64,000 nt of DNA from Pseudobdellovibrionaceae bacterium (GTDB taxonomy: Bacteria; Bdellovibrionota; Bdellovibrionia; Bdellovibrionales; Bdellovibrionaceae). Under the pieces are notes generated by a model. The model was not told the DNA's origin, did not search any database, and saw only the letters and a program-made list of their open reading frames with translations. Of this stretch, positions 30,077 to 46,346 are shown piece after piece. The stretch lies in contig JBIKLL010000001.1 of the NCBI GenBank assembly GCA_044359815.1, forward strand, positions 32,001 through 96,000, in the 5' to 3' direction. Positions within the stretch are counted from its first letter, which is position 1; each line of letters starts with the position of its first letter. A program made the position numbers and the translations under genes.

Positions 30077-30673
30077 ATGAAAATCTACACAAAAACAGGC
30101 GATGATGGCAGCACCAGTTTATTAAGCGGAAAAAGAGTTTCCAAAGATCATTGGAGACTTCAGATTTACGGAGGCATTGATGAAATCAATAGCTTTCTGG
30201 GATTAGTCACAGCACTTCTGGAGGACAAAGGCCTATCCGCTGGCGGCTTGGAACGTCTTGAAAATTATGTTTATCGGATTCAAGGACAACTGTTTTGCTT
30301 GGGTTCCCATTTTGCTGCTGATGATATTAAAAAAGCTCTTGAACAAAAGATTTTACCTAAATTATCTGATCGTTGGATTACGGATATGGAAAAAGAAATC
30401 GATCTGATGCAAGAGGACCTGGAGCCCTTGAAAAATTTTGTACTGCCAGGGGGCAGCCGATCAGCCGGAGTTCTACATATGACCCGCAGTCTGTGCCGAC
30501 GTGTTGAGAGGGATTTAGTTGCAGCCAAAGACCAACTGGATCAGCAGTTGGATCTTTTTAATTTTTCGCAAAATTATTTAAATCGTCTGAGCGACCTGCT
30601 GTTTGTCGCGGCCAGATATTGCAATCACAAACAAGGCAAAAAAGATAAAATTTGGATCAAAGAAAAGGATTGA
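30077..30673 (+). CDS. Cob(I)alamin adenosyltransferase, PduO type
   Basis: MKIYTKTGDDG, YG.IDE.NS, FVLPGG, R..CRR.ER, YLNRLSD.LF. Confidence 0.92.
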   Translation: MKIYTKTGDDGSTSLLSGKRVSKDHWRLQIYGGIDEINSFLGLVTALLEDKGLSAGGLERLENYVYRIQGQLFCLGSHFAADDIKKALEQKILPKLSDRWITDMEKEIDLMQEDLEPLKNFVLPGGSRSAGVLHMTRSLCRRVERDLVAAKDQLDQQLDLFNFSQNYLNRLSDLLFVAARYCNHKQGKKDKIWIKEKD

Positions 30674-30675
30674 AA

Positions 30676-31803
30676 ATGCGTCTTGAGCTGACCAGTGAAA
30701 AAGACAATTTTAATCTGTGCGAATTTTTCGCAGGCTTTGGCCAGTCAGGGCTAATCGATGTCAAATACCTCAGACATCCCGATTTTTTTGGTCCTTTTAA
30801 AACTTTGTCGGACGAGTATAAAACCTTTTGCTTGCGGGACAACAATGACGAAATCCGAGCCACGGCATCATTTGTATTTCGGAAAGCTTTGATCGATGGC
30901 AAAGTTAAAAAAATTGCGACGGCCACCGACCTGAGGGTGGGACACGACAGAGACGTGATCATTCAGTGGAGCAAGCATTTTTTACCAGTGATGAAAAGTG
31001 TTATGAATGAGCACAAAGTGGATTTTATTTTTTCATCCATCAATTTGTCAGATCCTTTGTTTATGTCGACTTTTGTTCGCCCCAGGACAGCTAAACGACC
31101 CATGCCCAGATATTTTTTGTACCGAAAATTTAATTTGGTTTCCATACATGGCAGATACCCCTTAGCAAATAAAAAACTGGCTTCGATAAAAGTCGAACAC
31201 GCTACTGATGCAACGCTGGGTGAGCTCGCCCAATATGTGAAAAAACGCAGCCAGTACCGTCCTTTTGCTTCCGTGTGGGACGAAGAAAGCCTGCGCCAGA
31301 AGATTTCCAGACTGCCAGGTATGAATATCGAAGACATGCTGATCGCCAGATCTTCACGCGGTGAAATCTTGGGCTGCTTGGGTTACTGGAATCCACTGAA
31401 TGTGCAAAGCATAGTTCCATTGTCTTATTCTTTGAGAGCTCATAATTTCAGACAGATACTAAAATTTCTTTGGATGTTTGGATACACTCGCAGACTGACA
31501 AAACCCGTGGCCTCAACAGGGGTTGAGCGCCCTTTGGAATTCAAATATGTCTTAAACCTGCATTCTGACAATGAAGACGTTTTTGAAAGCCTGCTGTTTG
31601 AAGCCTTTAATTCCATCAGCAAAAGGGAATTTTTGTTGTATGCCCACTGCGAACACGATTACAGATTGTTGCCCCCGCTTGGTTGGGTTTCCGCCAGCAT
31701 ACCTTATGCTATGTACACAGTGGTTGGACCCGATCAAGAAATGCCTGATTTTTTAAACCCATCGATCGCTGTAAATCCCGAAGTCGAATCTCTTTGGATT
31801 TAA
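30676..31803 (+). CDS. Hypothetical protein, probable tandem GNAT-fold
   Basis: Long ORF coupled to pduO; Y.R.PDFF and DLRV motifs. Confidence 0.5.
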   Translation: MRLELTSEKDNFNLCEFFAGFGQSGLIDVKYLRHPDFFGPFKTLSDEYKTFCLRDNNDEIRATASFVFRKALIDGKVKKIATATDLRVGHDRDVIIQWSKHFLPVMKSVMNEHKVDFIFSSINLSDPLFMSTFVRPRTAKRPMPRYFLYRKFNLVSIHGRYPLANKKLASIKVEHATDATLGELAQYVKKRSQYRPFASVWDEESLRQKISRLPGMNIEDMLIARSSRGEILGCLGYWNPLNVQSIVPLSYSLRAHNFRQILKFLWMFGYTRRLTKPVASTGVERPLEFKYVLNLHSDNEDVFESLLFEAFNSISKREFLLYAHCEHDYRLLPPLGWVSASIPYAMYTVVGPDQEMPDFLNPSIAVNPEVESLWI

Positions 31804-32227
31804 AAACTGCTATATGACCCACCTGGCTTCGGCTAATTTGAATTTTAAAAAAATATTTCTATGATTTCACATCTTGTGAATACATCCAGCGAGCGCGACG
31901 TTTAATTTACCGCCGCATATCTCGTGTTACGTAAATGCAAAGATAATTTTTTTCACTATTTTTAGACACTCGCTAACGGCCGCGGGCTCATCTCTCGTAT
32001 TGAGTCATTAAATAAAAGCAATTTTTTTGCTTTTATTTAATGACTCAACACCAGATATGCCCCGCGCGCTCGCTGCATGTGTCTAAAAACAGTAAAAACA
32101 AATTATTTTTGCATTTACGCAATACGAGAGATGAGCTTGCGGCCGTTAGCGGGTATTCTCAAGGTGTGAAATCATAGAAATATTTTTTTAAAATTCAAAT
32201 TAGCCGAAGCCAAGTGGGCAGTTTTTA
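31801..32227. repeat. Type 2 rod-like palindromic element, copy 1
   Basis: Outer 66-bp IR 31818-31883 / 32153-32218 (3 mismatches), middle IR ~31925-31969 / 32079-32124, apical IR 32000-32021 / 32027-32048, separated by X/Y modules; outermost TAAAAACTGC/GCAGTTTTTA. Confidence 0.95.
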
Positions 32228-33334
32228 AAAATTAGCTCCAAAATCCAAATGATTTCTTTTGTAATCCCCAGTGCTTTGCGCATCAATATTGGTTTTTTGA
32301 TCAAACACAGATAGGGCCACATAGGATTTGGCACTCAGTTTATAACTGACTGAGGCCACGTAGCCCTTGGCAGAGGTATTGCCTTTAGCAAAGTCTGCAT
32401 CGGTAAACAGTCCCACAACAGAATCTTTTTCGATTTCTTGCTGTGAAAAATGCAAACCCCATTTGTCGATATTAAAAACCAATCCGTACGAGGTAGCTAC
32501 TGAATAGCTTAAAGCCTTAGTGTTTTCATTCATCTCATAAAATAATCCGATTTCGTAGTCTTCAGGCTTAAACTTAAGCTCAAACATTTTCTGCGAAATC
32601 ACAAACTCTGTAGGATAGTTTCCTGATGAATCAAAAGTGTTGTTTCCAGCTGTGGCTGTGGTCGCTCCTGAAACTAAATCCGATGGAGCGGTATTTTTAA
32701 TACCTACAAATTCGTACTGGCCAAAACCAAACATAACCGAATAAAACCCCTGCTTGAGAGTGTACAAAATCTGTCCCCCATTTATATCGTTGTCAGTTTG
32801 CTCGTTTCCGTTAGTGCTGTCGTAGTTTTCTCTGATTTTAAAGGTTGCTCCGTTCATCGCAAGTTCGTGTTCATTTTCAAACTTAACAAAATATTTTGCA
32901 GCAAACCCCTCAAAGGAAATATCCCGGTCAAACAGCATTTGATTTTTACCCGCAAAATAAAACGGACCTGGCTGCTTACCCAATAACAAATGCAAATCAC
33001 CAATGGCCTCGTAGTCAGCAAAAGCCTGATCTAACCCAATTGTGCGCTTAGGCATTCCCGGCGCATTGCGATCACCCAGGGTCTGATTGCTGCTGACTGC
33101 CTTTGTGCCCGTAGAGATTCTAAAGTTTGCCTTTAGATTCTCAGTGACTTCAGCCCCAACTCCTAAGCGAGCCATCAGCTGCTGAGAATTCTGCTGTTTG
33201 TTGGTTCCTACAGTTTCAGTTAAAAATCTGTATCTCAAATCACCATTGATTACAGGCTCAGCATAAACAGATAACGGGATAAACAAGGGTGTTAAAATCA
33301 ATGTCAGCAAAATTTTTAATTGAGCAGTTTGCAT
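32225..33334 (-). CDS. Putative porin
   Basis: Signal peptide, GDLRYR, ARLG, SSNQTLG, LDQAF, LFD.DISFEG, C-terminal Phe. Confidence 0.78.
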   Translation of the reverse strand: MQTAQLKILLTLILTPLFIPLSVYAEPVINGDLRYRFLTETVGTNKQQNSQQLMARLGVGAEVTENLKANFRISTGTKAVSSNQTLGDRNAPGMPKRTIGLDQAFADYEAIGDLHLLLGKQPGPFYFAGKNQMLFDRDISFEGFAAKYFVKFENEHELAMNGATFKIRENYDSTNGNEQTDNDINGGQILYTLKQGFYSVMFGFGQYEFVGIKNTAPSDLVSGATTATAGNNTFDSSGNYPTEFVISQKMFELKFKPEDYEIGLFYEMNENTKALSYSVATSYGLVFNIDKWGLHFSQQEIEKDSVVGLFTDADFAKGNTSAKGYVASVSYKLSAKSYVALSVFDQKTNIDAQSTGDYKRNHLDFGANF

Positions 33335-45931: not shown

Positions 45932-46346
45932 GCCTGCCTGGCTGTGCGGTTATTTTCTGAAACCAGATTTTGTATTTTCAAATGTTTCTTTATTTTATAC
46001 CTTGTGAATACTTGCTAACGGCCGCAAGCTCATCTCTCGTATTGCATAAATACAAAGATAATTTGTTTTTACTGTTTTTAGACACATGCAGCGAGCGTGC
46101 GGGGCATATCTGGTGTTGAGTCATTTTATAAAAGCAAAAAGATTGCTTTTATAAAATGACTCAACACGAGAGATGAGCCCGCGGCCGTTAGCGAGTGTCT
46201 AAAAATAGTGAAAAAAATTATCTTTTCATTTACGCATCACGAGATATGCCATGCGCGCTCGCAAATGTATTCACAAGGTATAAAATAAAGAAACATTTGA
46301 AAATACAAAATCTGGTTTCAGAAAATAACCGCACAGCCAAGTGGGC
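45932..46346. repeat. Type 2 rod-like palindromic element, copy 2 (inverted relative to copy 1)
   Basis: Perfect 73-bp IR 45939-46011 / 46267-46339; interior closely matches reverse complement of 31884-32152; right end GCCAAGTGGGC shared with copy 1. Confidence 0.95.

Follow-up and report, generated by a model that had tools for sequence, protein, structure and literature searches.

The window analysed here is a stretch of 64,000 nucleotides (nt) from a Pseudobdellovibrionaceae bacterium (NCBI GenBank assembly GCA_044359815.1, contig JBIKLL010000001.1, positions 32,001 to 96,000 of the forward strand), and all positions given without a contig refer to it. Where two genes converge within it, at 31799-32229, lies a long, nearly palindromic sequence that folds into a rod and carries two short conserved boxes, X and Y, once in each orientation. 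It belongs to a family of repeats that, as judged from sequence comparisons, is high-copy and lineage-specific. We lean, with moderate confidence, to the reading that the rod is one copy of a non-autonomous, hairpin-forming interspersed DNA repeat located at the 3' ends of genes, similar in kind to repetitive extragenic palindromes (REPs) and their composites, the REP doublets forming hairpins (REPINs) and the bacterial interspersed mosaic elements (BIMEs), and that the imperfect duplex between X and Y is a recognition module acting in cis.

The rod and its box pair

The original prediction, made from the letters of this stretch, had proposed the order outer arm, X, middle arm, reverse complement of Y, apical hairpin, reverse complement of X, middle arm, Y and outer arm, and this is the order that we find in the sequence, with a rod on both strands. 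The parts are listed below, followed by the flanking genes and a second copy; percentages of identity are mean pairwise values over an alignment (A1) of 23 compound copies, that is, copies built like this one.

31799-31810, unstranded: left half of the outer palindrome (TTTAAAAACTGC), copy-specific, 12 nt, 100% complementary; contains the stop codon of the left gene (31801-31803)
31811-31818, unstranded: 8-nt segment (TATATGAC), unpaired in the fold, from the flank palindrome to the terminal arm
31819-31883, + strand: left outer arm, made up of a terminal part T and an arm A with GAATAC at its end; varies among copies and is complementary to the right arm (identity of A 81.8%, of T 37.6%)
31884-31922, + strand: outer X box, long form, whose 13-nt insert forms a small local hairpin
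31923-31970, + strand: middle arm M, a diverged arm of the inner unit, near-constant among copies (95.3%); in another strain a longer, A-type arm occupies this position
31971-31995, - strand: inner Y box, so that the + strand shows its reverse complement, rc(Y) (100% over the 23 copies)
31996-32052, unstranded: conserved stem S (GAGTCAT/ATGACTC) and variable apical hairpin, here of the short type (apical variable part 50.3%)
32053-32076, - strand: inner X box, a consensus match, so that the + strand shows rc(X) (95.8%)
32077-32126, + strand: middle arm M', from the inverted repeats (94.7%)
32127-32151, + strand: outer Y box (98.7%)
32152-32217, + strand: right outer arm, A' and T', from the inverted repeat and covariation (A' 79.9%, T' 34.9%)
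32218-32229, unstranded: right half of the outer palindrome (GCAGTTTTTAAA), copy-specific; contains the stop codon of the right gene (32225-32227, - strand)
30652-31803, + strand: left flanking open reading frame (ORF), 383 aa, no Pfam family; terminates within the palindrome
32225-33334, - strand: right flanking ORF, 369 aa, Porin_5; converges on the rod
45969-46309, - strand: another copy of this compound element within the window (G000:C124:77969-78309), also between convergent ORFs

The boxes stand out clearly from the surrounding sequence. The Y consensus matches the window four times without a mismatch, against 0.00 matches expected, at 31971-31995 (-) and 32127-32151 (+) in this copy and at 46013-46037 (-) and 46169-46193 (+) in the second; the X consensus matches twice, against 0 expected, at 32053-32076 (-) without a mismatch and at 46088-46111 (+) with one. 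A consensus search allowing up to 3 mismatches missed the outer X at 31884-31922 because of the 13-nt insert of the long form, which occurs in 28 of the 129 X cores of the genome. Folding of both strands, which had been suggested as a check, yields a single rod in each case, with energies of -227.1 kcal/mol (z -21.4) and -244.5 kcal/mol (z -24.8) that none of 100 shuffled sequences equalled. The outer arms are inverted repeats of 66 nt with 95% complementarity, and the further 12-nt perfect pair (31799-31810 with 32218-32229) encloses the whole rod and holds the stop codons of both genes; its left half, with an A run, a stem and a T run, resembles the stem of a two-way terminator.

The basic unit of the family consists of a variable arm, an X box, a conserved stem, a variable apical hairpin, a Y box and a second variable arm. 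Simple units with one X and one Y exist (for example G000:C62:2037-2160 and C107:28857-28980), and in these the order is an arm with GAATAC at its end, the X box, the stem GGTGTTGAGTCAT, an apical hairpin with a conserved AT-rich centre, the stem, the Y box, GTATTC and the other arm. The copy in the window is a compound, in which one unit is nested inside another in the opposite orientation, so that each DNA strand has one 5'-X..Y-3' and one 5'-rcY..rcX-3' module. What had been called its middle arm is the shortened and diverged arm of the inner unit; in other compounds the middle arm is longer and is an arm of the ordinary type, and the elements range in size from 240 to 440 nt.

The pairing of unlike boxes is close to a rule. 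When boxes located by regular expressions are joined to their nearest nested partner, X is paired with Y in 89 of 93 cases, the exceptions being three Y:Y pairs and one X:X pair, while 69 boxes, many of them at contig ends, find no partner in this count. X is related to rc(Y), with a likeness of about 65% by eye, and X and Y therefore form an imperfect duplex. This duplex is polar: in a simple unit the strand reading 5'-X..Y-3' folds better than its complement by 21.5 kcal/mol with RNA parameters and by 13.2 kcal/mol with DNA parameters, and the module on this strand forms 22 Watson-Crick and 3 G.U pairs, compared with 20 and 0 in the complement. Each strand of a compound thus has one tighter and one looser module. 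The claim that either strand presents one bulged X/Y module is borne out in this form, the imperfect X:Y duplex being a conserved polar module that occurs once per strand in the nested copy of the window. As for the element as a whole, the RNA energy is better for its minus strand in 25 of 29 compound copies, whereas mismatches in the outer arms of 26 compound copies, which are not independent of one another, include 51 G.T against 27 A.C on the plus strand, defined by the outer X-to-Y direction. Because the two biases disagree and the copies share descent, we take neither as evidence of a strand preference. The G.T excess in the arms persists although the interior flips relative to the arms.

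The nested arrangement also allows a second fold. Complementarity is perfect between the inner rc(Y) and the outer Y, and likewise between the inner rc(X) and the outer X, so that in the compound a long-range pairing incompatible with the rod competes with it. This alternative, in which the inner rc(Y) pairs with the outer Y over 29 positions (A1 columns 200-228 with 372-400; window 31971-31999 with 32123-32151), is the one favoured by RNAalifold, whereas single-sequence folds favour the rod.

Two other readings of the interior were considered and rejected. A 45-aa ORF across the second half of the stem, rc(X), M' and Y is not taken for a gene, in that the same frame stops after 6 codons in simple units (by eye), and a local hairpin within the Y box (CYYGC..GCRRG) is ruled out, its variants covarying with the X side and not with each other. 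Hexamers resembling a sigma-70 promoter (TTGAAT-16-TATGAT) face inward in both outer arms, at 31838-31865 (+) and 32198-32171 (-), and, if used, would give convergent transcripts of the rod interior. Promoter-like hexamers number 6 in the arms against 1.9 expected, a count that is doubled because the arms are inverted copies, and the hexamers differ between copies.

Distribution, context and differences between strains

By blastn, a 441-nt stretch of this locus matches 94 places in its own lake metagenome-assembled genome (MAG; 2.95 Mb in 125 contigs), many of them at contig ends, and regular expressions locate 93 clusters with, in all, 129 boxes of X type and 126 of Y type. Many of the breaks between contigs of the MAG are due to the repeats. 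Lake-water metagenomes give a similar picture: in four of four runs the contigs covering the repeat add up to roughly 10 to 200 times the depth of the unique flanks, and contigs end at the edges of the repeat, at about 31853 and 32183. Among the contigs of these four runs there is no contig spanning the rod and no joint representing an empty site; one contig joins 31879 to 32120, and this probably comes from another copy. The 24 runs listed are all recorded as DNA (23 lake water metagenomes and 1 'metagenome'), none as RNA.

In the other genomes searched the element was not found. Forty relatives from other genera and families gave just one marginal match, of 34 nt, and a family-wide DNA search of 181 other genomes gave only matches of 20-47 nt (E 1e-4 to 0.01), in 24 of them. 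We inspected two of these short matches, which cover the end of a coding sequence, presumably that of ribosomal protein L20 from the way it reads, and an AT-rich tail, with no boxes, and we take the short matches to be due to chance. Plasmids and phages gave no blastn match. A search with the exact box pattern had no match in viral contigs or in a set of 185,579 species with one genome apiece, but matched 9 loci, each on its own contig, of one metagenome assembly. A search of the literature found no prior description of such repeats in Bdellovibrionota, which is not proof that none is in print.

The genomic context was taken from crude ORF calls (the longest non-overlapping ORFs of at least 90 aa). 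For the 28 copies with ORFs on both sides, the neighbours are convergent in 19, in tandem in 8 and divergent in 1; the distance from copy to stop codon is mostly 8-70 nt, and 0 of 29 copies lie within a long ORF. No protein family recurs beside the copies, the largest cluster comprising 3 of 286 neighbouring ORFs. The palindrome often continues into flanks that are specific to the copy: with the arm length fixed at 78 nt, the next 50 nt on either side remain mutually inverted in 7 of 28 copies at p<=0.01 and in 11 of 28 at p<=0.05, as exemplified by AAAAACTGC...GCAGTTTTT at the copy in the window. No target duplication is evident in 28 flank pairs, and the ends of the element are undefined because no empty site was found. 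Relatives did not supply one, since even the closest homologue that the porin gene has in them, at 36% identity, is too distant for synteny. At one further copy (G000:C48, 28220-28637) the left flank ends, by eye, in the 3' part of a tRNA-like sequence (GGTTCAAATCC...CCA), in which case the copy would directly follow a tRNA gene.

Comparison with the related strain or strains in the metagenome assembly shows that the interior of the element changes while its flanks remain. Seven of the nine metagenome contigs share unique flanks with the MAG at 84-98% identity, and at these seven comparable loci the box beside the same arm is of the other type in three, the interior is otherwise different in three and it is the same in one. 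Of the three loci with the other box type, two are seen in alignments (98% and 84% flank identity) and one is deduced from the box order only. The arms at the C110 locus (98%) are identical, with a full compound between them in the metagenome and a reduced unit of opposite orientation in the MAG (G000:C110:638-725 against L032:398-654). In the MAG copy the stretch between two ATGCAA direct repeats, of M and M', is deleted, leaving arm, long X, 22 nt, Y and arm. The C49 locus (84%) likewise has a reversed interior, with a different apical type, and at the C102 locus the box order suggests a reversal too. Three further shared loci vary in interior content or in the form of X, and at one shared locus the related strain has a short middle arm and the MAG a long one. 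Flips are also seen on a smaller scale: among the 10 copies of A1 with a long hairpin, 2 have the AT-rich centre of the apical hairpin turned with respect to the boxes, and the direction of this centre in three simple units matches the majority.

Conservation and covariation among copies

The identities given above fall into two groups, with boxes and middle arms near-constant and with the arms, the apical part and above all the terminal parts diverged, and yet the rod structure is retained throughout A1, where 95.1% of the cells are paired. Changes on both sides of a pair occur in 64 of 172 pairs, compared with a mean of 34.6 in shuffled alignments (none of 500 reaching 64) and with 20-29 when the partner is slid by 1-3 columns. 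These changes are unevenly spread over the helices, with 48 of 76 pairs in the outer helix, 13 of 41 in the apical helix and 3 of 55 in the helix formed by X:Y and the middle arms, of which 38 of 55 pairs are invariant. Within the module itself, the foot of X and the foot of Y covary, TT/AA being replaced by CC/GG in the same 4 of 23 aligned copies (pairs 114-402 and 115-401: UA 19, CG 4). The original prediction held that the X/Y mismatches are kept across copies while the neighbouring stems stay fully paired; the first part stands genome-wide in the 23 aligned copies, and the second needs correction, as the stems are about 91-97%, and not fully, paired.

The kind of change is informative as to how complementarity is maintained. 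Among the alternative Watson-Crick pair types, 36 are of the transversion type and 30 of the transition type, and matched one-base indels occur in the A/T runs of both arms. Transversion-type pair changes fit templated copying of DNA better than stepwise compensation in RNA. Taken with the matched indels and with the interior flips between strains, the double transversions suggest that the complementarity of the arms is kept largely by exchange at the level of DNA.

Interpretation and alternatives

We propose that these elements spread, now or formerly, as selfish DNA, entering sites that resemble hairpins or terminators as well as each other. The likeness of their arms would be maintained mainly by exchange between the two palindrome halves at the level of DNA, through recombination or template switching, and the interior flips may be the visible trace of this exchange. 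The boxes X and Y are too unlike for such homogenisation and yet are conserved in every copy, which argues that they function in cis; the pair may be a module that is read by a trans-acting protein, most plausibly on a folded single strand, with the mismatches giving the strand its polarity.

Known repeats offer several points of comparison. The likeness to REP hairpins named in the original prediction is apt in kind, as conserved ends, a variable spacer with compensatory changes and mismatches in the stem have their parallels in REPINs and REPs. In the part of PMC3116915 that concerns them, REPINs are described as having conserved ends and a less conserved spacer in which compensatory changes are common, and passages of PMC8266576 report that conserved stem mismatches of REPs are needed for TnpAREP activity and that only one strand of the folded REP is read. 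Like REPINs, the rods are high-copy and extragenic (94 places; 0 of 29 copies in a long ORF), and their two conserved ends are inverted and form a hairpin with a variable, compensating spacer. They differ in size (240-440 nt, whereas the group I REPIN described in that part of PMC3116915 has 71 bp between two invariant 16-mers), in that their ends are unlike boxes that pair together and not two copies of one self-folding REP, in being nested, and in that no RAYT gene is flanked by rods, the one RAYT-like gene having a 33-nt REP of its own. The BIMEs of E. coli, in which REPs of the y and z types form mosaics of alternating orientation with accessory motifs and which are bound by IHF, gyrase or Pol I, occur, as the rods do, in higher-order composite copies. 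In the rods two box types face each other (89 of 93), the boxes are not self-palindromic, and the composites are nested, not side by side. MITE-like repeats (MITE, miniature inverted-repeat transposable element) of the ERIC, Correia and RPE types are, as the rods are, imperfect palindromes over their whole length and restricted to lineages, and are co-transcribed with neighbouring genes, as the rods may be. In contrast to these, the rods have a strict rule of unlike boxes, nesting and an extreme contrast between invariant boxes and diverged arms, and no DDE partner was found. The attC sites of integrons act as a folded single strand in which extrahelical bases set the choice of strand and the palindromic centre is variable, and they are 57-141 nt in length. 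A rod taken as a folded strand with a variable palindromic centre is similar to attC, which is also named in passages of PMC8266576. Unlike attC, rods are dispersed and not found in cassette arrays, and at 240-440 nt they are about three times as long; no search for an integrase was made.

As to an enzyme, Pfam searches of the MAG gave 0 matches for IS110, DDE_3, DDE_Tnp_1 and TnpB and one for rve. The Y1_Tnp (HUH) family gave nine, namely one RAYT-like gene and eight paralogues of about 203 aa. The RAYT-like gene (L041:1501-1839; G000:C8:9768-10106, - strand) scores 72.5 bits against NCBIfam REP_Tyr_transpos, below the cut-off of 80. The eight paralogues (L049:1501-2109 and seven further places, on G000 C48, C23, C100, C47, C125, C56 and C8) carry an HLH and a YFEANH motif and share 87-93% protein identity with the paralogue used as query; a protein search with one of them adds two distant paralogues in the MAG, and among solved structures the ISDra2 transposase comes closest, at no better than E 0.9. 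Conservation of the eight beyond the ORF is limited to about 80 nt upstream, with no element ends, so that they are not recent copies of an insertion sequence. Downstream of the paralogue on C23 there is a tandem repeat of about 40 nt (G000:C23:820-940; ..GTAGTGATTTTATTGAACACCAAAAATAT..), unrelated to the rods. The Y1 proteins are the only candidate enzymes and the sole multi-copy family of DNA-handling enzymes that we found, and their link with the rods is weak and conjectural. If one nevertheless follows this link, the rods would be giant REPIN-like elements moved as folded single-stranded DNA by a divergent, multi-copy HUH Y1 family that is widespread in Bdellovibrionota; they would insert at the tips of hairpins, be it terminators or each other, and so build nested rods, with X:Y providing strand selectivity and the compound being a derived form that could be handled on either strand. 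We regard this extended scenario as rather improbable.

Several points weigh against reading the rods as mobile REP-like DNA or against its proposed enzyme. In the 28 flank pairs and the contigs of the four metagenome runs, neither an empty site nor a target duplication nor an excision product came to light, so that mobility is read only from the dispersal of the copies. The near-invariance of the middle arms, which are merely stems in the rod, is not explained by the proposed model. REPs are short imperfect palindromes that fold by themselves and are preceded by GTAG; in distinction to them, single boxes fold with only -1.3 to -1.5 kcal/mol as DNA, and neither X nor Y contains GTAG on either strand. 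The RAYT-like gene is flanked on both sides not by rods but by a different, 33-nt palindromic repeat, which is found at many other places in the genome, often as inverted pairs (91 non-self matches to the 3.3-kb region, nearly all at the two places of the repeat); gene and repeat together look like a classical REP/RAYT system distinct from the rods. No box lies within 3 kb of any of the eight Y1 paralogues or of the RAYT-like gene, a high-copy repeat is found within 700 nt of only 2 of the 10 Y1-like genes (the eight paralogues and the two distant ones), and the Y1 family occurs, often in several copies, in 24 of 40 relatives that are without the rod element, one closed genome giving as many as 17 matches. 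The completeness of the MAG is 91%, and assemblies of this type often lack insertion sequences. Finally, the rods may have a role as RNA at each locus.

This last point leads to an explanation in terms of host RNA, which we consider unlikely overall. Rods would be co-transcribed into the 3' ends of both convergent genes and serve as two-way terminators, as barriers to 3'-exonucleases or as substrates of RNase III, the X:Y loops would bind an RNA-binding protein, and nesting would give each transcript one module. Such a role would suit the position of the copies (19 of 28 between convergent ORFs, mostly 8-70 nt from the stops), the enclosure of the rod in the window by AAAAA-CTGC...GCAG-TTTTT, the strong folding of both strands, the three extra G.U pairs in the module of the 5'-X..Y-3' strand and the excess of G.T over A.C mismatches in the arms (51 to 27, in copies that are not independent). 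On the other hand, a terminator scan found 0 sites in 31600-32450, double transversions, with 36 types, are no rarer than transition-type changes, with 30, and are accompanied by matched indels, which is unusual for stepwise compensation in RNA, and the interior is flipped or replaced between close strains, which argues against an RNA adapted to its locus. The bias in location would also be expected from purifying selection against insertions into promoters.

Alternatively, the boxes may be recognised as double-stranded DNA by a protein of the host (a nucleoid protein, gyrase or a regulator, for instance), as in E. coli BIMEs, with the arms being incidental. X and rc(Y) do share sub-motifs, their GC-rich cores contain palindromic hexamers within AT-rich DNA and the boxes are 96-100% conserved, but this account leaves unexplained why X faces Y (89 of 93), why changes covary across the module (TT/AA to CC/GG in 4 of 23 copies) and why the complementarity of the stems is maintained, and we find it distinctly improbable. 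Very improbable, and slightly more so, is an ordinary MITE, a derivative of a DDE insertion sequence that has terminal inverted repeats and a target duplication: although the entire element is an inverted repeat and TA or TTAA often stands near its ends (by eye), no consistent target duplication is evident in 28 flank pairs, the conserved boxes are internal and not terminal, no coding partner adjoins the copies, and DDE_3, DDE_Tnp_1, IS110 and TnpB had 0 matches, with one for rve, in a MAG that is 91% complete. The rod-like fold of both strands had raised the thought of a viroid-like or ribozyme-bearing RNA replicon, or of a module that cleaves itself in both polarities. The Rfam search proposed for this idea gave 20 matches up to E=10 in 31000-33000, none of them at the gathering score and none to a ribozyme family, those listed being generic models of microRNA-precursor hairpins and a few weak others; moreover, the rod is part of the chromosome, in which it recurs, between unique flanks, at about 94 dispersed places. 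Both the viroid-like and the catalytic reading are close to refuted.

If the rods are, as we favour, interspersed DNA repeats of the REP kind, they add a well-resolved case, with about 94 places in one genome, of hairpin repeats that combine a lopsided conserved core with stems that change in step. What sets the family apart is the strict two-box rule, the nesting of unit in unit, and interiors that are flipped or swapped between strains with 96-98% identity in the flanks. Should the box pair be read on folded single-stranded DNA, the family would offer a simple substrate for finding the enzyme, and could show how palindromic repeats are maintained and spread in predatory bacteria that seemingly have almost no ordinary insertion sequences.

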